Shown here one piece after another: positions 24,867-64,000 of a DNA stretch of 64,000 nt. The stretch spans positions 52,886,001 through 52,950,000 of the forward strand of contig NC_047016.1 of assembly GCF_902652985.1 (NCBI RefSeq), in the 5' to 3' direction. The notes under the pieces are model-generated. The model had not been told where the DNA came from. It worked only from the letters and a program-made list of their open reading frames with translations, and searched no databases. Numbering within the stretch: position 1 is the first letter of the stretch; the number at the start of each line of letters is the position of its first letter. The stretch is from Pecten maximus (lineage: Eukaryota). A program made the position numbers and the translations under genes.

Positions 24867-27800
24867 TCATGAACAGCGACAGACAGTCGACGGACAATGT
24901 GGAGGTACATGGTTACACGTGCTGTCACACCAGGAATCCGTGGCGACAATAGATACGGAAACACATGTCCGGCTACCGCTAGAGGGCGCTGGAGTTGTAG
25001 ATGGCGTGGTTGTCGTTGGCGTTGTTATCCGTGTTGCTGTGTTGGCTTCAGTTGTTGTCTGGACTTGATTTCCTGACGTAGGAATCCTTTCTGTTGTGGT
25101 TAAAATGGCTGCTGGTTTACCTGATGTTGATGTTTTTAAAATGGACGACAAAGTAGTATATATCTTAGTTTCTCTAGCTGTAGTGGGGGTCGAGTCAGTT
25201 ATTGTCGCCTTTGAATCTGTTGTTTTAACAGGTGCCGCTGTTGAAGGTGTTGTTTTTACAGGTGTCGGTGTTGAAGGTGTCGTTTTTACAGGTGTCGTTG
25301 TCCTACTTGTCGCTGATGTAGTGGGCGCTGTGTTGACTACTGCTCTATTTGAAATAGCTATATCTGAGCATGCATAGAATTCTTCTTGTGGTCCAAATCC
25401 TAAACCGTTTCCATTTTCATCAGTGCCCCAACTATTTCCTGAAATTACAAACATAAAATGTGAAATTTTAATTACTTAATAATTGTAAAAACAAACATTT
25501 GTTATAGCCATGGACATGCCAGTTCTTTGCAGTCAATTGAAAACAGAAATCTGTGACATCCACAAAGATAAATCGATGAGAACAAAATTGCAAAAACTAA
25601 TAACATCAAAAACTATTGGTTTACAGCACAATTCTGACTTTTACAGAATTATACATATCCGCTATTGGTTTCTCAAATTAAGAATTCTTTCTCTTTCAAA
25701 TCATTTAAGCATCGTCCTACGTGACATGCGTTATATTTAACTATGAAATTAGTTACATGGTTTTCACAAAAAAGTACCATTTTATAGATAATTTATTTAA
25801 TGATGATAATAACACATGCGATATAAAAAGTTATTTCATGGAAAATATGGCTACTTTTAAGTTATCACCTGTGAAAAAAAGGACCTAACATATCACACTA
25901 GCTTACCTGTATGGTATCGCCATTGAATGACACACTGGGAACACGTGACGTTCGATGGCAGGTCCAAAGCGATTGTTATATTACCAGGCTTTTTCCCGAT
26001 TTGATGTTTTGTCTCTCCTGTATTCGAGTTTGGAAGTAAATATTTTAGACACTCTTTTGTGATGGGTTTGGCCACATCGTTGTTTTCACAGAGACGGAAT
26101 TCAAAGAATCCGAGATGATTAGAAGTTATCTCGACGGTGATGTTGATGGTCGAACCCTTGGTATAATATTTTACGATAACACCCTTTGCATATTTTCCCC
26201 CAGCCTCGTTTTCCCTTGGATGTGGCTGGTCATAAGGGTCTCCGCAAACGCCACACTTGCCCCCGAGACTTTGTTGATGCTACAAAAGAAATTAAGAGAT
26301 ATGTCAACCCCATGCTGAATATACGGAACTGGAACTTTATAGAGAAGACAACAAAATGGCTCAGAGAGGCTCCCAAGCCTAACAGAAGTGTTCGATGGCA
26401 ATAAAAAGTGATGATATGTTTAAACACTTCAATGTAGTTAACTCTGTGGAAGGATTTGTGAAAAACATTGAACTGAGTTAAAGCTATTGTCATAAAATTA
26501 TAGCTACTGTAACGCCTACATCCTACAGACTGCCTGTTACAATAGATAAATGATGACGACAATAGTGTAGTTGTTATATCTAAGTTATATCTAATTAATA
26601 GTTTGGTTTGTTTTTGTTTAACGTCCTATTAACAGCCAGGGTCATTTAAAGACGTGCCAAGTTTTGGAGGTGGGGGGAAGCCGGAGTACCCGGAGAAAAA
26701 CCACCGGGCTACGGTCAGTACCTGGCAACTGCCCCACGTAGGTTTTGAACTCGCAACCCAGAGGTGGAGGGCTAGTGATAAAGTGTCGGTACACCTTAAC
26801 CACTCGGCCACCACGGCCCCATAATCTTATTAATACCAACACATGAAAAACAATAATAGCAGCGCCATTAAAATGATCACGTATCAAACAGGGAAATGTG
26901 TACCAAATATGGAAGGGGAACACGATATTCGTTCTTTGTGAACAGCTTAATTCTCTGGAGGGTGGTACATAATTACTCGTTTTCGTTTATATAGCCTAGT
27001 AGTGTATAAGGTAAGATTGACTAGGTACACGTGTCCCGATGGAGTATCGAACTTCCTTGTACACAGACCCCATGCGTTTAGTTAAGGAATATCATATTTC
27101 ATTTAACCATGCCCGAGTTACATCCGGGTCGACAGGTGTGACTATTTGTATGTAAAATAAGTCAACGAGAAGTCTACTGTTAACATGTAAGTCGATATAC
27201 ATGTTTGTATATCAATTATGTTTTTGTTGAGACTAAAAAGTCGGCTATTTTAAGGTGAAACAATCCCAGAACTATTAGATATGGCGAATACAACCATTAC
27301 AACACCGACTATAATGTTTTTACTTTTATTTAGCTCTCTGTAATCAAATACAAAAGGTTGTCGCTTTAGAAACAAAAGAGAGACACCATCGTTAGTAATT
27401 TCTTTTGAATGTTCTACCGTTTTTCTAATTTTTTCCTTGTGTGTCATTTTTTTTATGTTTGATAGATATCAATACAACTAAAATACAATTTTATTTGACA
27501 TTTAACCCCGCAATATGGATATCATCATGGTTATTTATCAAACAGTATACAGNNNNNNNNNNNNNNNNNNNNNNNNNNNNNNNNNNNNNNNNNNNNNNNN
27601 NNNNNNNNNNNNNNNNNNNNNNNNNNNNNNNNNNNNNNNNNNNNNNNNNNNNNNNNNNNNNNNNNNNNNNNNNNNNNNNNNNNNNNNNNNNNNNNNNNNN
27701 NNNNNNNNNNNNNNNNNNNNNNNNNNNNNNNNNNNNNNNNNNNNNNNNNNNNNNNNNNNNNNNNNNNNNNNNNNNNNNNNNNNTTTAATCAACTTACTGC

Positions 27801-27968
27801 GAATCCCCCACAATACAGTTCGTTGTCATTGAAGTTTTTCGGTGTATCGAACCCACCTCTCCAGGCACTGCTTCTTCCCAATGGGTTTAAAAGGCGACCA
27901 TGACCATTAATAGTCATAAACACGGAAACGGTCACCTGGAAGAAAAATGTCAACTCGAACGACTGCAT
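24867..27968 (-). CDS. AA15-type lytic polysaccharide monooxygenase (LPMO-A; chitin-binding type-4 domain) with Thr-rich linker and C-terminal 6-Cys module, 371 aa; exons 27968-27798, 26279-25907, 25438-24867
   Basis: 22-aa signal peptide, then HGRLLNPLGRSSAWRGGFDTPKNFNDNELYCGG (His1), CGVCGDP, ENEAGGKY, TSNHLGFFEFRLC (His2), TCSQCVIQWRY, GNSWG..GPQEEFYACSDI; 171+373+572 nt in frame with canonical splice sites. Confidence 0.95.
26601..26820 (-). mobile_element. tRNA-derived SINE (V-SINE-like core), in intron 1 of LPMO-A
   Basis: Reverse complement of the copies at 36660, 39526 and 59127; A box, B box and AAAC-type tail; imperfect TSD ATCT(A/T)ATTAATA. Confidence 0.9.
27553..27783. other. Assembly gap (N run) in LPMO-A intron 1
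   Basis: Run of n. Confidence 1.
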
Positions 27969-45904: not shown

Positions 45905-48900
45905 ATGGTTTTTGGTAGCTTGGTATTGGTTTTCTGTATATGGATGAATTTCGTCCCAGATGTTGTTCGTGGAAACAGCCGGATGTTTGAACTTCTCGGG
46001 AGAGATGTCAAGCAGGGGGATGGCATTGCTACACATGTTGGCTTTCAAGACAACGGACTAAGCCGTAGTGAACAGAACGTAAAGTATTTTAATTTGAAAA
46101 AATTAAACCTACTTTTATATCGAGATTAAGATGTTTTGTCAGCGTTAAAATATTTTGTTGTCTTAATCATAATTCTATACACCTCTATGCAAAATCATCA
46201 TGTTTGGCTATAAATAACTCCTTGTCCTTACTGAAGTCAACTTGTTTTGAGAAAAATGACGTAATGAGGTAAAACTGATATTTCTCATCAGTGTTTATCG
46301 ATGAATGTGACTACTGATAGCAGATTATTCCGGGTTTATTAAAAGAGAAAAGCTGTAATAAATCTCCTGTTATCTTGATTACTAGAAATCTTTAGAGGTC
46401 TCTAATGGAGCTTGTGGATTATGCAGAAACCCATTGGGACAAGGTGGAAAGCAAAACGAAACTTATGAAACAATTTTCCCAGAGATAACTTCAGAAGGCA
46501 ATATCATGTGGACGATCATCGGAATCAAAATACAGATTACATCCGACAGCGACGGTTTCCTCGAGTTCTTTCTTTCTGAAACTGACGTGAAACAAAGAAA
46601 TACTATGAACTGTTTGAAACATTTATTGGTTAATCCGGAGACGGGAGGGACAAGATACCCTGTTACAGCCTCTCAACAGTACATCGCTGTGTCTGCCAAG
46701 CTGCCCGAGAACGTCACGTGTTCCCAGTGTGTCTTACAGTGGAGGTACGCCACAGGTAAGTGTTATCATAGTCACGTCTCCCCCGTGTGTCTTACAGTGG
46801 AGGTACCACACAGGTAAGTGTTGTCAGAGTCACGTGTTCCTAGTGTGTCTTACATTGGAGGTACCACAAAGGTAAGTGCTGTCAGAGTCACGTGTTCCTA
46901 GTGTGTCTTACAGTGGAGGTACCACACAGGTAAGTGCTGTCAGAGTCACGTGTTCCTAGTGTGTCTAAGAGAAGAAGTACTACACAGGTAAGTGTTATCA
47001 TATTCACGTGTCCCCCGTGTGTCTTACAGTGGAGGTACCACACAGGTAAGTGTTATCAGTCACGTGTTCCTAGTGTGTCTTACATTGGATGTACCACACA
47101 GGTAAGTGTTATCATAGTCACGTATCCCCCGTGTGTCTTACAGTGGAGGTACCACACAGGTAAATGTTATCAGTCACGTGCTTCCAGTGTGTCTTACTGT
47201 GGAGGTACCACACAGGTAAGTGCTGTCAGAGTCACGTGTTCCTAGTGTGTCTTACAGTGGAGGTACCACAAAGGTAAGTGCTGTCAGAGTCACGTGTTCC
47301 TAGTGTGTCTTAGAGTGGAGGTACCACACAGGTAAGTGCTGTCAGAGTCACGTGTTCCTAGTGTGTCTTACAGTGGAGGTACCACAAAGGTAAGTGCTGT
47401 CAGAGTCACGTGTTCCTAGTGTGTCTTACAGTGGAGGTACCACAAAGGTAAGTGCTGTCAGAGTCACGTGTTCTTAGTGTGTCTTAGAGTGGAGGTACCA
47501 CACAGATAAGTGTTATCAGTCACGTGCTCCCAGTGTGTTTTACAGAGGAGGTACCACACAGGTAAGTTTTATTAGAGTCACGTGTTCCTCGTGTGTTTTA
47601 CATTGGAGGTACCACACAGGTAATTTTTTTAGAGTCACGTGTTCCTCGTGTGTTTTACATTGGAGGTACCACACAGGTAAGTGCTGTCAGAGTCACGTGT
47701 TCCTAGTGTGTCTTAGAGTGGAGGTACCACACAGGTAAGTGTTATCAGAGTCACGTGTTCCTAGTCTGTCTTACAGTGGAGGTACCACACAGGTAAGTGT
47801 TATCAGTCACGTGTTCCTAGTGTGTCTTAGAGTGGAGGTACCACACAGGTAATTTTTTATAGAGTCACGTGTTCCTCGTGTGTCTTAGAGTGGAGGTACC
47901 ACACAGGTAAGTGCTGTCAGAGTCACGTGTTCCTAGTGTGTCTTAGAGTGGAGGTACCACAAAGGTAAGTGCTGTCAGAGTCACGTGTTCCTAGTGTGTC
48001 TTAGAGTGGAGGTACCACACAGGTAAGTGCTGTCAGAGTCACGTGTTCCTAGTGTGTCTTACAGTGGAGGTACCACACAGGTAAGTGCTGTCAGAGTCAC
48101 GTGTTCCTAGTGTGTCTTACAGTGGAGGTACCACAAAGGTAAGTGCTGTCAGAGTCACGTGTTCCTAGTGTGTCTTAGAGTGGAGGTACCACACAGGTAA
48201 GTGCTGTCAGAGTCACGTGTTCCTAGTGTGTCTTACAGTGGAGGTACCACAAAGGTAAGTGCTGTCAGAGTCACGTGTTCCTAGTGTGTCTTAGAGTGGA
48301 GGTACCACACAGGTAAGTGCTGTCAGAGTCACGTGTTCCTAGTGTGTCTTACAGTGGAGGTACCACAAAGGTAAGTGCTGTCAGAGTCACGTGTTCCTAG
48401 TGTGTCTTACAGTGGAGGTACCACAAAGGTAAGTGCTGTCAGAGTCACGTGTTCCTAGTGTGTCTTACAGTGGAGGTACCACAAAGGTAAGTGCTGTCAG
48501 AGTCACGTGTTCTTAGTGTGTCTTAGAGTGGAGGTACCACACAGATAAGTGTTATCAGTCACGTGCTCCCAGTGTGTTTTACAGAGGAGGTACCACACAG
48601 GTAAGTTTTATTAGAGTCACGTGTTCCTCGTGTGTTTTACATTGGAGGTACCACACAGGTAATTTTTTTAGAGTCACGTGTTCCTCGTGTGTTTTACATT
48701 GGAGGTACCACACAGGTAAGTGCTGTCAGAGTCACGTGTTCCTAGTGTGTCTTAGAGTGGAGGTACCACAAAGGTAAGTGCTGTCAGAGTCACGTGTTCC
48801 TAGTGTGTCTTAGAGTGGAGGTACCACACAGGTAAGTGCTGTCAGAGTCACGTGTTCCTAGTGTGTCTTACAGTGGAGGTACCACAAAGGTAAGTGCTGT

Positions 48901-51900
48901 CAGAGTCACGTGTTCCTAGTGTGTCTTACAGTGGAGGTACCACAAAGGTAAGTGCTGTCAGAGTCACGTGTTCCTAGTGTGTCTTACAGTGGAGGTACCA
49001 CAAAGGTAAGTGCTGTCAGAGTCACGTGTTCCTAGTGTGTCTTAGAGTGGAGGTACCACACAGATAAGTGTTATCAGTCACGTGCTCCCAGTGTGTTTTA
49101 CAGAGGAGGTACCACACAGGTAAGTTTTATTAGAGTCACGTGTTCCTCGTGTGTTTTACAGTGGAGGTACTACACAGGTAAGTTTTATTAGAGTCACGTG
49201 TTCCTCGTGTGTTTAACAGTGGAGGTACCACACAGGTAAGGGAAACCATTTAACTATCATTTTATTGCATTTTTATGCTAAAAACAAACCTAAAAACATA
49301 AAAACATCGCAATTGAATCGTTTTCTGCTGTCATCGAATAATCTGTTCATGGATAGCTAATATCAAGTGAGTATTTTGTCAAAAACCTAGCCTGAATATT
49401 TCAGAAATACAGGAAAAAATATCCATTTTCATTACAATTGGAAATTATCGGCAAGTTTCAATGAGATGAGGCTCGCTCTCATTGGTAAAAAATCATTGTA
49501 AAATCTTATATCCTTACTGCTCATCGCTGCAATCAAAATATAAGTTTATCTTTTTGATAATAAGGGATTGCTTTAATGCCATTTTGATATCACATCCCTG
49601 ATCCGCCCGAGAATCTTGAAAGCAGCCTGAGGGCTGACCTAAAGGCTCAAGGGCGGCTGGTTAGAGGTCCGATTTCAAAAATGGTCATATTATAAAGTTT
49701 TATCCATATTTTTATATTTTTTTTCAAACACAACAAACATGACCTCACATTTTGATCTGTGAAAATCGTCACGTTCAATTGTGTTTTTCTCAACATTTTC
49801 ATATTTTTAACAAACGGTTCTCTGTCATCTGCATCCTCAAATCGATCCAATTAAACACGTCTTCTGCTATACATGTCCATCAGTCATCAGGGTCAACAAT
49901 TCCAGCTTCTAGCTCGCCTAATATCCCCCTCCCTCGATCATCTCTAAAAAAATAGACATCAAAACGCTAGGAACTGTACAAAGGTGTTCCACCATGTTCT
50001 CTTTTAGGTCCCATCCTCTTTAGCATCTTCAAAAATGACATCTTCCACTTTACGCAACACAGCAATCTATACATCTATCCAGATGACAATACTATAGAAA
50101 TTCACACACATCCTGGGACATCGTAAAAAAGCACTACAAACAGAAAGCAACTCACTTATTCACTGGTTCTCAGATAACCACATAAAGGCTAATCCAAGCA
50201 ATGCCAGTAGTTAACAAACCCCAACAATAAAACATCACCATTCAGATTGGTAATAACACTATATAATGTGAACCAGAAGTTAAACTTTTAAAGGTTACAT
50301 TAGATTTCAAGCATAAGTTCTTCACATATTTAGCAAATTATCTGCAAAAAAGTATCAAGACATCGTAACACACAAAAACGCATTGGCAAACACCTAAGCA
50401 GACTTGGCAAACACACGATATCACTCTTTTATCATTTCAAACTTCAATTTTTGTCCATTCACATGGCAGTTCTAAGGAACAACCAACGCAAAAAAAAAAA
50501 AAAAAAAAAATGTAAAAAAAATCAAGAAAGGGCACTCAAATAATAAACAGGAAAATACGCACGAAATTTAACTAGCCCGTTCAAAATTACCATCACTCAG
50601 AATAAGGAGACTCAGGAATTTGGCAATAGAAGTCTACAAAATCAAAACAAATGCCAACATACCTACATGACGTAATCAATATAACAGAAAAAGTATACAC
50701 ATTCAGATATCACAACACTGCAGATATACCACATGTTAGGACAGCAAACTATGACAAACACTCCTTTCAGTCAGAAACACCTAAAATCTAGAATGCACTA
50801 CCAAACCACTTCTGAACAACGACTTCACTCACACAATTCAAATCACTGACAAACAGCTGGTATGGGCCACAATGCAAATACAGCACGTGCAGACAAAACA
50901 CAGACATACCCACACACACAACATCCATTTTTTTGTAAGAGTCTAAAGGAACTTAATGCTTAATCAAATATCCATATTGTCAAGTGATTCTGCTATATCA
51001 AAGATATAACTCAACGAAATATATTTCCAAACAATCATTTTCTGCAAGCATTGATCTTTTTAATCAGGTAAATACATTTGTGTGCTTTTATGCTTTATTT
51101 ATTTTTATTTAATTTATTTTGTATTTGTGCATGTGTTTTACTGTTGCTATCGTTTTTAATAGCTAATTAGAGTTAATGTTTTTTATAATACGTACCGACT
51201 ATAAATAAAGTTTGAATTGATTTGAACCGAATTGAATCACCAGTTGGCATTGCTGTTTATATTTATGCAGACCACAAGTTCAACCCACACTAATAAGAAA
51301 AGTAAAAACGGAAACGGCGTTATTCGGGAACTTACATTACATTTGTGAAGTTTTATTATTTTGCATGTACATTGTTAGTGTTTTCCTGTTATAAAAAACG
51401 GCTTATTCAACTATTTGTTTATTTTTACATTAAAAGCGGTAAAGATAAGCCATAATGGCAAAATCCGGATTTTTACAGGGATGGTGATAACACTTTCGAA
51501 GGGGTTTGGTATCACTTTCAAGGGAGTGTGATAATACCATCAGAGGGTGTGACATTACTATCAGAGGGTGTGATATTACCATCAGAGGGTGTGATATTAC
51601 TATCAGAGGGTGTGATATTACCATCAGAGGGTGAGATATCACCATCAGAGGGTGTGATATTACCATCAGAGGGTGTGATATTACCATCAGAGGGTGTGAT
51701 ATTACCATCAGAGGGTGTGATATTACCATCAGAGGGTGTGATATTACTATCAGAGGGTGTGATATTACCATCAGAGGGTGTGGTATTACCATCAGAGGGT
51801 GTGATATTACTATCAGAGGGTGTGATATTACTATCAGAGGGTGGGATATTACCATCAGAGGGTGTGATATTACCATCAGAGGGTGTGATATTACCATCAG

Positions 51901-54900
51901 AGGGTGTGACATTACTATCAGGTGGTGTGATATTACCATCAGAGGGTGTGATATTACCATCAGAGGGTGTGGTATTACCATCAGAGGGTGTGATATTACC
52001 ATCAGTGGTCGTGATATTACCATCAGAGGGTGTGATATTACCATCAGAGGGTGGGATATCACCATCAGTGGGTGTGATATGACCATTAGAGGGTGTGATA
52101 TTACCATCAGTTGGTGTGATATTACCATTAGAGGGTGTTATATCACCATCAGTGGGTGTGATAATACCATTAGAGGGTGTGATATTACCATCAGTTGGTG
52201 TGATATTACCATTAGAGGGTGTTATATTACCATCAGAGGGTGTGATATGATCATCAGAAGGTGTTATATTACCATCAGTTGGTGTGATATTACCATCAGA
52301 GGGTGTGATATGATCATCAGAGGGTGGGATATTACCATCAGAGTTTGTGATATCACCATCAGGTGGTGTGATATTACCATCAGAGGGTATGATATTACCA
52401 TCAGAAGGTGTGCTATTACCATCAGTTGGTGTGATATTACCATCAGAGGGTGTGATATTACCATCAGAGGGTGTGATATTACCATCAGATGTTGTGATAT
52501 CACCATCAGAGGGTGTGATATTACCATCAGAGGGTGTGATATGATCATCAGAGGGTGGGATATTACCATCAGAGTTTGTGATATCACCATCAGGTGGTGT
52601 GATATTACCATCAGAGGGTATGATATTACCATCAGAAGGTGTGCTATTACCATCAGTTGGTGTGATATTACCATCAGAGGGTGTGATATTACCATCAGAG
52701 GGTGTGATATTACCATCAGAGGGTGTGATATTACCATCAGAGGGTGTGATATTACCATCAGTTGGTGTGATATTACCATCAGAGGGTGTGATATTACCAT
52801 CAGTGGTCGTGATATTACCATCAGAGGGTGTGATATTACCATCAGTGGTCGTGATATTACCATCAGAGGGTGTGATATTACCATCAGAGGGTGTGATATT
52901 ACCATCAGAGGGTGTGATATTACTATCAGAGGGTGTAATATTACCATCAGAGGGTGTGATATTACCATCAGTGGTCGTGATATTACCATCAGAGGGTGTG
53001 ATATTACCATCAGAGGGTGTGATATTACTATCAGAGGGTGTAATATTACCATCAGAGGGTGTGATATTACCATCAGAGGTCGTGATATTACCATTAGAGG
53101 GTGTGATATTACCATCAGAGGGTGTGATATTACCATTAGTGGGTGTGATATTACCATCAGAGGGTGTGATATTACCAGGACTGATGTTAATTTGTGATAA
53201 TTGTAGACATATCGCATATACAAAAAGTGTAGTAAATTTATGATACATTTCTATATTTCACCGGGAAAAATGCAATAATGTTTTATCATATACTGTACGG
53301 GTGTTAATGGCCTTGGTAAGTAAAATATGTTATAGAAATATTAATATCAATAATGCAGAAAGCCTGTGGAATCCGATATCGAGCTTTGTTATATTAGTAA
53401 AATAATATACTCTCGATCTAAGCATTATAACACTAATCCATTTGATATAAGCTTGTTATCCGAAATGTTATAAATGTAAAAAAAAAAAAAAAAAAAAGTT
53501 TGTGAAATATAATTAAAGGAATGAAACGATTGCATCATTTCGTTTTACTGTTGTAGGAAACCAGAAATTTAATTCTGAAGAGATATGTGAAGCATGCGAG
53601 GACCAGACAAAACTCTATGCATGTTCATATGTTGCTAAGACGTCAGGAGACACTGATCTGTCTCCTCTCACTGCCGACACAGCTTTCTCTTCTGATATTA
53701 ACAAACGATCCACTAAAGTATGTGTGTCTATTGTTGACGGAGTTCACGACATCTGGTGCGACCGCAACTGTAATCACAAGCCGCCATATTGCCCGATTAC
53801 TTTGTGTAAATGCACTACAACCTCAACTGCAACATCTATCACCAGCACCATATCTTCATCTACCAGCATCTCAACCAGTCCTTCCTCGACCCGGAGCAGT
53901 GTCACTTCCAGTCCTTCCTCGACCCGGAGCAGTGTCACTACCAGTCCATCCTCGACCCGGAGTAGCATCACTACCAGTCCATCCTCGACCCGGAGTAGCA
54001 TCACTACCAGTCCATCCTCGACCCGGAGTAGCATCACTACCAGTCCATCCTCCAGCTGGAGTAGCATCACTACCAGTCCATCCTCGAGCTGGAGCAGCAT
54101 CACTACTAGTCCTTCCATTGGCTGGATCAGTGTCTCTACCAATCCTTCATATAGAAAAAGTACTACCACCTCTACTACCACTCCATTCAGTAACTCTCTT
54201 TCAATTTCTACAAGGACCAGTCCGTCATCTAGTAGTTCCACGACCAGTTCGTATAGTTCTACTATTTCCGTTTCCAAGACTCCAACTACTTACTCGGCGC
54301 GTGGATGTATATCACTTTACCGCAAACGTTCAGGATTCCTGGTGTGAAGTAAACTGCAATTACGTACCGCCATTTTGTCCAGTTTCACTATGTAAATGTT
54401 TAATTATCCTCTCAACTACTACAACCACTACCATGCCTTCAACCACCACTGCCACTCCTTCTACAACAAGTACCACTCCCTCCACAACAAGTACCACTCC
54501 CTCCACTACAACTACCACTCCCTCCACTACAAGTACCACTCCTTCTACAACAAGTACCACTCCCTCCACTACAAGTACCACTCCCTCCACTACAAGTACC
54601 ACTCCCTCCACTACAACTACCACTCCCTCCACTACAACTACCACTCCTTCTACAACAACTACCACTCCCTCCACTACAAGTACCACTCCCTCCACTACAA
54701 GTACCACTCCCTCCACTACAACTTCCACTCCCACCACTACAACTACCATTCCCTCCACTACAAGTACCACTCCCTCCACTACAAGTACCACTCCCTCCAC
54801 TACAAGTACCACTCCTTCTACAACAACTACCACTCCCTCCACTACAAGTACCACTCCTTCTACAACAACTACCACTCCCTCCACTACAAGTACCACTCCT

Positions 54901-56039
54901 TCTACAACAACTACCACTCCCTCCACTACAAGTACCACTCCTTCTACAACAACTACCACTCCCTCCACTACAAGTACCACTCCTTCTACAACAAGTACCA
55001 CTCCCTCCACTACAACTACCACTCCCTCCACTACAAGTACCACTCCTTCTACAACAAGTACCACTCCCTCCAGTACAAGTACCACTCCCTCCACTACAAG
55101 TACCACTCCCTCCACTACAACTACCACTCCCTCCACTACAAGTACCACTCCTTCTACAACAACTACCACTCCCTCCACTACAAGTACCACTCCTTCTACA
55201 ACAAGTACCACTCCCTCCACTACAAGTACCACTCCCTCCACTACAACTACCACTCCCTCCACTACAAGTACCACTCCCTCCACTACAACTACCACTCCCT
55301 CCACTACAACTACCACTCCCTCCACTACAACTACCACTCCCTCCACTACAAGTACCACTCCCTCCACTACAAGTACCACTCCCTCCACTACAAGTACCAC
55401 TCCTCCAATACAACTACCACTCCCTCCACTACAAGTACCACTCCCTCCACTACAAGTACCACTCCCTCCACTACAAGTACCACTCCCACCACTACAACTA
55501 CCACTCCCTCCACTACAACTACCACTCCCTCCACTACAACTACCACTCCCTCCACTACAACTACCACTCCCTCCACTACAAGTACCACTCCCTCCACTAC
55601 AAGTACCACTCCCTCCACTACAAGTACCACTCCCACCACTACAACTACCACTCCCTCCACTACAAGTACCACTCCCTCCACTACAACTACCACTCCCTCC
55701 ACTACAAGTACCACTCCCTCCACTACAACTACCACTCCCTCCACTACAAGTACCACTCCCTCCACTACAACTACCACTCCCTCCACTACAAGTACCACTC
55801 CCTCCACTACAATTACCACTCCCTCCACTACAAGTACCACTCCCTCCACTACAAGTACCACTCCCACCACTACAACTACCACTCCCTCCACTACAACTAC
55901 CACTCCTTCTACAACAACTACTCCTTCCTCTGCCGGCTGCGTATCCCTTTTCCCTAGTGTTCCTAATTCTTGGTGTGAATTGAATTGTAACCACTCACCG
56001 CCCAATTGTCCAGGATATTTGTGTCAATGTACAACCTAA
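45905..56039 (+). CDS. AA15 LPMO-derived gene lacking the histidine brace (LPMO-C), with three 6-Cys modules and mucin-like Ser/Thr stalks, ~1008 aa if two 1-nt indels are corrected; exons 45905-46078, 46386-46755, 53557-56039; either a non-catalytic protein or a pseudogene
   Basis: Same exon phases and near-identical exon 1/2 lengths as paralogues. Signal peptide, then NSRMFELLGR (vs HGRMLDPPGR), TSDSDG (vs TSNHEG) and QTKLYACS (vs QEEFYACS). A +1 T at ~54316 and a -1 C at ~55402 interrupt exon 3; AATAAA at 56214. Confidence 0.75.
46713..49240 (+). repeat. 58-bp minisatellite derived from the LPMO-C exon 2/intron 2 junction, ~43 copies
   Basis: Unit GTCACGTGTTCCTAGTGTGTCTTACAGTGGAGGTACCACACAG|GTAAGTGCTGTCAGA (starts at 47231 and 47289) = last 43 nt of exon 2 + first 15 nt of the intron. 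Confidence 0.97.
49930..51237 (+). mobile_element. 5'-truncated, decayed CR1/L2-type LINE (RT C-terminal half + 3' UTR) in LPMO-C intron 2
   Basis: KGVPPCSLLGPILFSIFKNDIFHF...LYIYPDDNT resembles GVPQGSxLGPxLF...YADD; terminal W.GP.C motif (~50858); AATAAA followed by a (TTGAA)n-like tail (~51202-51237). Confidence 0.8.
51527..53177. repeat. 21-bp minisatellite (GTGTGATATTACCATCAGAGG), ~78 copies, LPMO-C intron 2
   Basis: Direct inspection. Confidence 0.97.
53874..54120 (+). repeat. 33-bp coding repeat (TSPSSTRSSIT), ~7 copies, first stalk of LPMO-C
   Basis: ACCAGTCCATCCTCGACCCGGAGTAGCATCACT units. Confidence 0.9.
54420..55925 (+). repeat. 21-bp coding repeat (TPSTT[S/T]T), ~70 copies, mucin-like stalk of LPMO-C
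   Basis: ACTCCCTCCACTACAA(G/C)TACC units between the 2nd and 3rd Cys modules. Confidence 0.95.
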
Positions 56040-59126: not shown

Positions 59127-59345
59127 CGGCGCGGTGGCCGAGTGGTTAAGGTGTCCCGACACTTTATCACTAGTCCTCCACCTCTGGGTTGCGAGTTCGA
59201 AACCTACGTGGGGCAGTTGCCTGGTACTGACCGTAGGCCGGTGGTTTTTCTCCGGGTACTCCGGCTTTCCTCCACCTCCAAAACCTGGCACGTCCTTAAA
59301 TGACCCTGGCTGTTAATAGGACGTTAAACAAAAACAAACAAAAAA
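59127..59345 (+). mobile_element. tRNA-derived SINE (same family) with a perfect 16-bp TSD
   Basis: A box TGGCCGAGTGG, B box GAGTTCGAAACC, core GGTTTTTCTCCGGGTACTCCGGCTTTCCTCCAC, A-rich tail; TSD GTAAGATGTTTGGCAT at 59111-59126 and 59346-59361. Confidence 0.95.
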
Positions 59346-60868: not shown

Positions 60869-63800
60869 ATGATGCCACTCCGATTGTCACTCGCTTGTGC
60901 TATGTTGATGAATATCCTAACTGTCGTGCATGGCCACGGCCGAATGTTGGATCCTCCCGGCAGAAGCAGCATGTGGAGAGTTGGCTTTAATACACCTGTA
61001 AATTTCGATGACAACGGCCTCAACTGTGGATACCGAAAGGTAGTTCCTTCATTAAAAAGCTGTGATTGAGAATCAATCTCATTATGGGTTTATTTTGATG
61101 TTCGACTGTAATGTATTGGTTTGGCAAAGACAACCTTTCTTGATTTCCGTACCTGTCCTTCACACAATGTTTGATCTAGTATCACTGACGAATGCTGCAG
61201 GAAAGTTATGTATTCGTGTCCAAGTCAAAATCAAAATAAAGACCAGACTATTTCATCATACGGTTATCGACTGTGAAATAGAAAAAAAAAAAAAAAAAAA
61301 GTGGACAGACGCAATATATCAATTCAGTAAACAAAAATAAAAATACAAATCAAGCCAAAAATTAAACGCGCACCGCATTGGAAATTATATAGCCCCAATA
61401 TTTGTTTCATAACCGACTGTCTTCTAGGCGTTCATGATATGACGATATAGGTACAATAGTTTCCTGTTCGGTTTGTTGTTATTTCATATCAATATCACCA
61501 AACCGTGCCCCTCTGTTTGCTGTTTAATTAATTATGTTGTCGTACGAGGCTGATTATATTGAAGAGCTTATCAAAAAAGCAAGAGAGACTTTGTAAAGCA
61601 CTTCAATTTTAACTTTAGTTATCTTAACGTTTAAGTGTTACATTTGAATAAAAACATTGTTGGCCATGTTGATCCGGTATATCATGTAAAACCCGAAATC
61701 AAGGAAGTTCATTTTCTTAAACGAGTCACTTATCTGTATCTTTACATATAATAATCACCAACGCGAACAGCTTACAAATAAGTTTTATGGTAACCGTGAT
61801 TCTTTCAATTTTTCCATTGCTATTCAAAGGCTAAGAATGATGTCGTTTGATTAAGACCACAGCGAAGTTTTATTGTCGGACTCTTATTTAGAAATATTGT
61901 ATTGCCTTATGCGATATGAATTATAACATATTTGATATTGTTGATATTTGTAATAGTTCCGTTGTCATCTACGTAACTCTTATGTGAGTTTGTGACTCAG
62001 ATTTGTATAGTGGGTGTCGTGGTGACCTAGATTTGTATGGTGGGTGTCTTAGTGAACTAGATTTGTATGGTGGGTGTCGTAGTGAACTAGATTTATATAG
62101 TGGGTGTCGTAGTGACATGGATTTGTATAATTGGTGTCGTCTTGACCTAGATTTGTATGGTTTGTGTCGTAGTGACCTAGATTTGTATAGTGGGTGTCGT
62201 AGTGACCTAGATTTGCATGGTGGGTGTCGTAGTGACCTAGATTTGTATAGTGGGTGTCGTAGTGACCTAGATGTGTATGGTGGTGTCGTAGTGACCTAGA
62301 TTTGTATGGTTAGTGTCGTAGTGACCTAGATTTATTTAGTGGGTGTCGTAGTGACCTAGATTTGTATGGTGGGTGTCGTAGTGACATAGATTTGTATGGT
62401 GGGTGTCGTAGTGACCGAGATGTGTATGGTGGTGTCATAGTGACCTAGATTTGTATGGTGGTGTCGTAGTGACCTAGATTTGTATGGTTGGTGTCGTAGT
62501 GACCTAGATTTGTATGGTGGGTGTCGTAGTGACCTAGACTTGTGGCGTCGATGAAGCAGAATACGCTAGCTTCTTCCGTAACACCTGGCCGTGTTCTCCT
62601 TAAAAAATGAAATGTTTGTTGATAGTTAACCTTCGTTGGATTGCTTAAGACTTTGTATTATGGTTTTATTACCACGTCAGTATGATTTTTGGGGATGTAT
62701 TTCATTATCATGAGTGTCACTTTATATACATTGTGGCGATATAGCATTTCTAACAAAAATGTTTATATTTTGACTTATTTTAGCAACCTCTAGACTTCTT
62801 CGGTGGCAATTGTGGCGTATGTGGGGACCCATCAGGACAAAATCCGAAGGAGAACGAGGCTGGGGGAAAATATGCAACGGGGATCATCTCAAAGTATTAT
62901 AAAATGGGGGAGAACATCAATATAAAAATACATATAACCTCAAATAATGAAGGTTTTTTCGAGTTCCGCCTCTGTGAAAATAATGACGTTAAAAAAAGAA
63001 TAACAAAGAGCTGCTTGAAACATTTATTGGTTAATCCGGAGACGGGAGAGACAAGATACCCTGTTACAGCCTCTCAACAGTACATCGCTGTGTCTGCCAA
63101 GCTGCCCGAGAACGTCACGTGTTCCCAGTGTGTCTTACAGTGGAGGTACCACACAGGTAAGTGTTATCAGAGTCACGTGTTCCTAGTGTGTCTTACAGTG
63201 GAGATACCACACATGTAAGTGTTATCAGAGTCACGTGTCCCCCGTGTGTCTTACAGTGGAGATACCACACATGTAAGTGTTATCAGAGTCACGTGTTCCT
63301 AGTGTGTCTTACAGTGGAGATACCACACAGATAAGTGTTGTCAGTCACGTGTTCCCCGTGTGTTTTACAGTGGAGATACCACACAGGTAAGTGTTATCAG
63401 AGTCACGTGTTCTCAGTGTGTATTACAGTGGAGGTTCCACACAGATAAGTGTTATCAGTCACGTGTTCCCCGTGTGTATAAGAGCGAATGTTCCACACAG
63501 ATAAGTGTTATCAACACACATCATTTTATCATCAATATGGTATTTGACAGTAGATATATAAGAGAAGAATAGTAGCCACTGTAAAGACAAATGAAAGCAA
63601 AAAGTGAATTTATAATGAGTTTATTTTAGTGTTGCATGACTGGATTGTCAGTCATGGCATTATGTTGAACTTGATAAAATTTCGAATAAGATTAGCGTTC
63701 AGTTATGTTACAAGAAGCTTATGATTTTTGTCTTTCGTCTTTGTTCTCTCTTTTAAACGAAGAAAAAGTGATTGAACAAAATGTAGTTGTAACCTTTCAT

Positions 63801-64000
63801 AACTGATACGTGGTTTGCTTGATATCACAGGAAAAAATGGCGGGATCTGTAAAACATGTGTCGACCAGGAAGAGTTTTATGCGTGTTCGGATATAGCCAT
63901 CAAAGACAGTGATTCACCGATCACGGAGGAAGACTCCGGTATATCTCCCCTTATAGCAGATACGGCGTTCATCCCTGACTCTAACCCGCGATCTCCTGGA
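60869..64000 (+). CDS. AA15-type LPMO-like gene (LPMO-D) with His2->Asn; exons 60869-61039, 62784-63156, 63831->64000 (runs off the window)
   Basis: 22-aa signal peptide, HGRMLDPPGRSSMWRVGFNTPVNFDDNGLNCG, CGVCGDP, ENEAGGKY, TSNNEGFFEFRLC, TCSQCVLQWRY, ICKTCVDQEEFYACSDI; frame open to the window end. Confidence 0.92.
61993..62540. repeat. 30-bp minisatellite (GATTTGTATGGTGGGTGTCGTAGTGACCTA), ~18 copies, LPMO-D intron 1
   Basis: Direct inspection. Confidence 0.95.
63114..63513 (+). repeat. 58-bp exon/intron-junction minisatellite of LPMO-D, ~7 copies (same family as 46713-49240)
   Basis: GTCACGTG...CAGTGGAG(G/A)TACCACACA(G/T)(G/A)TAAGTGTTATCAGA units starting inside exon 2. Confidence 0.93.

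Follow-up and report, generated by a model that had tools for sequence, protein, structure and literature searches.

LPMO-D of the scallop Pecten maximus is, on balance, best explained as an old, still selected, secreted AA15 paralogue that does not cleave, has a binding or scaffolding task and leaves position 90 free to drift. The gene carries Asn at this position in place of the second histidine of the brace and keeps the first. The window, meaning the whole stretch of 64,000 nucleotides that was analysed, contains four intron-containing AA15-type LPMO genes, A to D, the last of which runs from 60869 to beyond 64000. LPMO-D has three exons with GT-AG introns, and its 238 codons are open up to the window end. 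The features of the locus are given below.

24867..27968, minus strand: paralogue A, intact brace; the spliced model equals Pecten maximus record P0008 letter for letter.
36131..38840, plus strand: paralogue B, intact brace, member of the clade of D; the spliced model equals Pecten maximus record P0005 letter for letter.
45905..~56039, plus strand: paralogue C, with Asn1 and, at the second brace position, Ser; 5' half strongly diverged, 3' part of exon 2 almost the same as in D.
60869..61039, plus strand: LPMO-D exon 1, from its translation and a GT donor; leader peptide (60869-60934) and mature residues 1-35; the last bases form the loose end of spliced contigs from the runs X6 and X10.
60935..60937, plus strand: His1 codon CAC, the first brace histidine, kept; His1 of the orthologue P0001 aligns with His1 of 5MSZ.
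62784..63156, plus strand: LPMO-D exon 2, beta-sandwich core, with AG and GT sites; PF03067 at 43.1 bits (cut-off 23), 5MSZ at E 1.8e-24; a spliced contig fits 62782-63157.
62931..62933, plus strand: His85 (CAT), five residues upstream of Asn90, on a beta-strand of the exon-2 model; unlikely ligand.
62940..62942, plus strand: Ser88, aligned with Ala89 of TdAA15A; A and B also have Ser.
62946..62948, plus strand: Asn90 (AAT) replacing the second brace histidine, aligned with His91 of TdAA15A.
63114..63513, plus strand: 58-bp tandem repeat, 7 copies, beginning within exon 2 and extending into intron 2; common to C and D.
63831..64000, plus strand: LPMO-D exon 3, truncated where the window stops; short GKNGGICKTC loop, Glu173 (63869-63871), axial Phe175 (63875-63877) and the start of a linker; the first bases form the loose end behind the X6 contig.

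Some further features of the locus were recorded. The 58-bp repeat has a counterpart of 44 copies in C (46713-49240); it contains the exon-2 splice donor, and donor-like GTAAGT occurs in many copies, yet the first donor was used in the one contig seen. An interspersed repeat of about 215 bp, probably SINE-like, was found at 26602-26820, 36660-36875, 39527-39735 and 59130-59343 (87-95% alike), and two N gaps lie in intron 1 of A (27553-27783) and between B and C (42205-42360). Paralogue C, whose 5' half covers 45905-46600, has 35 of 63 family-conserved columns altered over the whole domain, with frame and splice sites intact, and may be a fast-evolving functional gene, not a pseudogene. Its second Cys-rich module (54290-54400) is seemingly split by a frameshift, which may be an assembly error, the spliced frame stopping at 54347 while the module goes on in another frame; downstream, at 54421-56033, there is a lengthy repeat of Thr and Ser as well as a third module.

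The original prediction, that D has Asn at the second brace position where A has CAT and B has CAC, was borne out, with the AAT codon standing in the frame T-S-N-N-E-G; C has AGC at the aligned codon. The kept His1 behind a hydrophobic leader and the different His five residues before Asn90 were likewise found as described. For comparison with the family, 284 database proteins (289 fetched, minus two identical to A or B and three redundant cluster members) and the four window proteins were used, together giving 300 domain rows that represent the best matches of D and not a random sample of the family. His occupies the position-90 column in 272 of the 294 rows with a residue there (six gaps), so Asn at this place is not a matter of chance. 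The leader of D, as judged by its sequence, ends V-H-G before His1, in register with the family pattern of VxG followed by HG. An N-terminus two residues earlier, which would create an ATCUN-like H-G-H motif, was considered and dropped, because it needs cleavage after Val and because HGHG is shared by the intact-brace proteins P0007, P0011, P0012 and P0013.

By homology D belongs in AA15: exon 2 matches 5MSZ at E 1.8e-24 and PF03067 above its cut-off, and D is nested among mollusc AA15 proteins. The best match of the predicted P0001 model was also 5MSZ (E 1.2e-18, TM 0.84 by target length), as was that of the predicted exon-2 model of D (Z 7.9, rmsd 3.7, 106 aligned residues, mean pLDDT 76.9). 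Neither the three exons of D nor P0001 gave a match to the Egh16-like family PF11327 at E 0.1. The view that the rest of the domain is well conserved held for all 10 Cys, the second-sphere Glu173 and the axial Phe175, but 9 of 65 family-conserved columns are altered in D (8/65 in B and 3/65 in A) and the aromatic of the GNxW loop is gone. Gly stands at the position of TdAA15A Tyr166, where W, Y or F is present in 202 of 236 His90-intact rows; B is without the aromatic too. Of the two surface aromatics of TdAA15A (Tyr24 and Tyr166), D retains the first as Phe24. The absence of a Tyr166-type aromatic from the substrate face speaks for a non-cleaving protein; as it would also weaken chitin binding by the LPMO face of D, it counts in part against the binding role favoured below. 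Since D is AA15 by descent and fold but lacks the full brace that defines such an enzyme, it would be best filed as an AA15-derived non-lytic paralogue.

The Asn codon was compared in four sequencing runs, one each from studies P2, P3, P4 and P5, over 62560-63160. These were taken from 24 listed runs (18 with the sequence, 7 studies), leaving out three top-matching runs that came from one sample of study P1. All four cover the codon, and no other letter was listed in any of their contigs, which drop rare variants. In every one of them A>G was found at 63007 (Lys to Arg), so the comparison does detect differences. Arg at this site matches the Argopecten orthologue, and the window carries a minor allele or an error here. 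One contig of 2175 nt (X6, depth 35) fits exon 2 exactly. One of its overhangs corresponds to the end of exon 1, from 61008, and the other to the start of exon 3, from 63832, which makes an exon 1-2-3 join; another contig (X10) has the exon 1-2 join. Splicing was read from contig ends, in runs that are not on record as RNA. Such intron-free joins, found in two studies and listed in neither of two DNA-like runs, indicate that D is transcribed and spliced.

The closest relatives of D are scallop proteins. B, C, D, P0001, P0002, P0003, P0004, P0006 and P0009 form a clade of nine (support 100/100), in which the B-type P0004 and P0006 keep both histidines. Argopecten P0001 has His1 and Asp90, Ylistrum P0002 and P0003 have Gln1 and Ser90, Mizuhopecten P0009 has Arg1 and Arg90, and C has Asn1 and Ser90. 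His90 is thus absent in six of the nine copies, from four genera, with N, D, S, S, S and R at position 90 and His, His, Gln, Gln, Asn and Arg at position 1; the pairs in the related copies argue against a fixed ligand set. D and P0001 are sisters (98/93, and 95/92 with both trait columns dropped) and have in common a shortened exon-3 loop. The orthologue comparison proposed with the original prediction could be made with P0001, which keeps His1 and lacks the second histidine as D does. By accession number P0001 lies beside P0006, P0009 beside P0004 and P0002 beside P0003, so that the tandem layout recurs in other scallops. The two Ylistrum proteins, both without either brace histidine, are near-identical in exon 2, and no intact B-type copy was among the Ylistrum proteins returned.

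P0001 was the only true orthologue of D among the proteins searched, and no orthologous DNA came to light. A search with exon 2 among short proteins gave nothing closer than 58% identity (20 matches of 22 candidates), a clade profile search gave no scallop member beyond the seven already collected (53 matches, 7997 candidates scored), and representative proteins added nothing to the clade among the best 150 of 1670. A metagenome scan gave 18 distant loci with best-segment identities of 34-57%, none of them an orthologue. D itself was not among the database proteins returned, which carries no weight either way.

In the best tree the brace-less rows did not form one clade, and the fewest changes were 2; a single clade of five brace-less rows was not rejected (p-AU 0.155; the long-branched C was excluded from this test). 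Over codon columns 121-160 the identity between C and D is 98-100%, including an identical run of 100 nt, and over columns 1-100 it is 52-65%. An apparent gene-conversion tract pairs 46600-46755 of C with 63010-63156 of D. Gene conversion blurs the tree and the history of the cluster.

The D lineage was compared with the intact pair B and P0006, which spans the same species split. Between D and P0001 only one of 64 family-conserved columns differs, namely position 90 itself, compared with 28 of 116 variable columns (Fisher p 3e-5); between B and P0006 the counts are 3/65 and 34/117. The leaders are identical at 9 of 22 positions in both pairs, and the domains at 153/182 (D/P0001) and 150/187 (B/P0006); mature residues 1-33 are the same in D and P0001. 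End branches measure 0.033 for D, 0.11 for B and 1.32 for C. From the column counts, the leader and domain identities and the branches, the brace-less D lineage is as constrained as the intact one. Because synonymous sites between B and D are saturated (pS 0.82, pN 0.16), with Jukes-Cantor dS undefined for A-B, A-D, B-C and B-D, and because the C-D ratio of 0.49 is distorted by conversion, no dN/dS is claimed. Pseudogene signs were not found: D has no stops, frameshifts or broken splice sites in its 238 codons up to the window end, and neither relaxed constraint against its orthologue nor a lack of transcript, spliced contigs being present in two studies.

These results bear on the age of the change. 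A recent single-base inactivation, one of the two origins first suggested for Asn90, is unlikely, because the Argopecten orthologue also lacks the histidine and because, outside this position, the domain is under the same constraint as in the intact pair. The loss of His90 is probably old. In a clock study that set six scallops against P. maximus, the nearest was Amusium, at about 130 My (PMC10225492), which would put the split of Pecten and Argopecten at least that far back; the available portions of PMC11439060 and PMC13212745 gave no usable date for it, and we read its age cautiously, as at least tens of millions of years. As for the idea that D is an intermediate toward the state of C, a codon path from His (CAY) through Asn (AAY) to Ser (AGY) is possible with one base change at each step, but D is not now decaying into C, as their very different end branches show.

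Several other explanations were weighed. That CAT is the usual allele, and AAT a rare variant or a mistake of the assembly, is scarcely credible. Only contigs were compared, the X5 contig over the Asn90 site has a depth of 41.9 against 71.9 beside it, so that a second haplotype may be hidden, and 16 pieces lie beyond those listed; yet none of the runs from four studies listed CAT although all four revealed the difference at 63007, and the orthologue is likewise without His. It is also improbable that D was inactivated recently and is heading toward a C-like state, with His90 lost separately and lately in Pecten (to Asn) and Argopecten (to Asp) and the conservation reflecting past selection. 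Two separate one-base losses take as many steps as one loss followed by an exchange of Asn and Asp, the short end branch of D fits a long-active enzyme as well, and the best tree does not gather the brace-less copies in one clade. Against such decay, a near-invariant residue would have to be lost repeatedly in six of nine clade copies from four genera, and the Asn codon recurs in all four studies in a gene that is spliced and open in frame. We give very little credence to the proposal that D is still an active LPMO, either because His85 has moved in as the second ligand or because Asn90 supports catalysis. The histidine is there, and the second-sphere Glu and axial Phe are kept, but in the predicted exon-2 model His85 is residue 49 and lies in a beta-strand of residues 43-50, five residues from the site and, by strand geometry, roughly 15 A away. 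Its column holds mostly Glu, Asp or Gln across the family. Among the 272 intact-brace rows 22 have His at this place, and among the 22 brace-less rows only D itself does; in P0001 the residue is Asp, and in the remaining brace-less copies it is Gln. TdAA15A has the same upstream histidine and yet uses His1 and His91. His85 was therefore rejected as a replacement ligand. Second-His mutants are inactive on chitin (PMC9550227), and mono-His anglerases are reported, in the text available for PMC12537917, to be without substantial oxidase or peroxidase activity relative to LPMOs.

An altered His/Asn metal site, the other suggestion first made for Asn90, has precedent in bacteria (PMC12537917); in the form of a selected mono-histidine brace it is a rather doubtful alternative. 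Here His1, through its amine and imidazole, and a side-chain oxygen of Asn90 or Asp90 would bind copper, and the secreted protein would either buffer or carry this metal, with A and B as conceivable recipients, or give off H2O2 at a low rate. Both sites could be read in 209 rows: 189 have both histidines, 15 neither, three the second only (one likely misaligned) and two His1 only, these two being D and P0001 from this one lineage; His1 is missing as well from 15 of the 17 rows that have no His90. Asn and Asp are both oxygen donors aligned at the His91 position, and the identical residues 1-33 and the retained Glu173 and Phe175 count in favour of this reading. Precedents are RbAng-1a, with copper held by His1 and the Asn41 oxygen in a crystal structure (Kd ~74 nM; PMC12537917), MmAng-2a, for which a site of conserved His1 and Asp33 was proposed and whose EPR signal is alike (PMC12537917), YcnI/DUF1775, with a His and Glu mono-histidine brace (KD ~2 nM; PMC8424229; PMC10952591), and Egh16-like relatives, with His1 and a conserved Asp (PMC6950343). 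On the other side, a single base change suffices to go between any two of His, Asn and Asp, so the pair can be had without selection, and position 90 is the sole conserved column at which D and P0001 differ. Both genes of the D lineage have His1 and Asx, but the one has Asn and the other Asp. Measured to the donor atom, Asn and Asp reach about 1 A less far than His, which would demand a shift in the rigid LPMO site. His1, too, is gone from four related copies, and with leaders that are 41% identical, the retention of His1 in two species is no significant signal.

Most weight was given to a non-cleaving protein with a binding or scaffolding task and a free position 90, on account of the varied residues at positions 90 and 1 in the clade; the kept His1 and oxygen-donor residues of D and P0001 speak against it, being what a mono-histidine brace predicts. 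In this preferred account a tandem duplication of a B-type gene gave rise to a second lineage in scallops, as the clade and the neighbouring records in four genera show. That lineage would then have lost the second brace histidine, most simply once and through a single base change to Asn, and the Asp, Ser and Arg of the other copies would each lie one step further, although separate losses are possible. Purifying selection has continued to act on the domain, and the gene is transcribed and spliced. After removal of the leader His1 would probably still chelate copper through its amine and imidazole, with water replacing the missing histidine, while chitin oxidation would be lost and slow O2 reduction might remain, by analogy with AA10 and AA11 mutants. 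Selection would most likely keep binding or scaffolding by the fold and by Cys-rich C-terminal modules, which is the least certain step; D would act alongside A and B, whose brace is intact, and its candidate targets are some partner protein or a matrix of chitin and protein. Such modules are present in P0001 (two), B and C, and those of D would lie beyond the window. In the Neurospora CWR-1 variants H78A/H79A copper and O2 reduction were kept, all chitin oxidation was lost and the non-catalytic role in allorecognition was retained, and CBP21 and CbpD with the second His changed to Ala gave no oxidised products, as cited in the same paper (PMC9550227). By inference from such mutants D would be non-cleaving, the mutations being His-to-Ala in other families and not His-to-Asn in AA15, and its His1 may still hold copper.

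Loss of the brace as such is ordinary, since brace-less fungal proteins are known and 15 of 209 rows lack both histidines; the conserved His1-only state is the rarer part of the finding. Fully brace-less AA15 homologues, with Arg, Gln or Asn at position 1, were also seen outside scallops, for instance in Aplysia (P0061) and Potamilus (P0109), and the list further includes, among others, P0229, P0231, P0239, P0243, P0251 and P0279. Among the literature matches listed there was no scallop AA15 gene and no His1-only AA15, and the portion available of a paper on insect AA15 named only intact braces (PMC9156745). Should the D lineage, as we think unlikely, represent a bis-His LPMO that has naturally become a mono-histidine-brace protein, holding copper but leaving chitin uncut, then an animal would provide an example of the YcnI and anglerase ligand set, a single base change having led there from an LPMO, and the whole series of two, one and no histidines would stand in one tandem cluster. 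D and its close paralogue B, with an intact brace in the same cluster, offer a natural test of the role of the second histidine in copper affinity and catalysis, and D also bears on what LPMO folds do without catalysis in molluscs. With two of the four window genes lacking the brace, PF03067 matches in bivalve genomes overcount active LPMOs.

Among known systems the nearest is TdAA15A of Thermobia domestica (PDB 5MSZ), whose copper ligands are His1 and His91 (PMC5823890). D resembles it in the exon-2 match (E 1.8e-24), the predicted fold, His1, the ten Cys, the second-sphere Glu, an aromatic axial residue and an aromatic at position 24, but has Asn for His91, Ser for Ala89, Phe for Tyr184 and no equivalent of Tyr166; in addition, its loop before the Glu is about 7 residues shorter, and it has a linker and, in the orthologue, Cys-rich C-terminal modules. 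The second-His mutants of CWR-1 (AA11) and of CBP21 and CbpD (AA10) share with D an LPMO fold with His1 only (PMC9550227); they are laboratory Ala mutants of fungal and bacterial proteins, whereas D represents a natural, conserved Asn/Asp state in an animal. The Arg-AA9 proteins, with Arg or Lys at position 1, are natural LPMO-family members without a full brace like D, and no activity was found for the one that was characterised (cited in PMC6950343 and PMC10486138). These fungal AA9 proteins lose His1, however, whereas D keeps it and loses the second histidine, and Mizuhopecten P0009 with its Arg1 is the closer parallel.

YcnI and the anglerases Ang-1 and Ang-2 have an N-terminal His after the signal peptide together with an oxygen donor, the same possible ligand set as in D. 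In contrast to D they are bacterial proteins of other folds with demonstrated copper binding, while the oxygen ligand of D is suggested by its position and its site would derive from a bis-His LPMO. Egh16-like proteins (PF11327) are distant LPMO relatives with His1 and a conserved Asp for the second His (PMC6950343), but they are fungal, and D and P0001 did not match their profile; since one member, TrsA, has copper-dependent oxidase activity and was modelled with two histidines (PMC12377627), the His/Asp picture of that family is not settled. X325/Bim1 proteins resemble D in an LPMO-like fold that, as described in the available text of PMC7924993 and PMC10952591, does not cleave polysaccharides and is linked to copper handling; they keep both brace histidines plus an Asp, whereas D is without one of the histidines.
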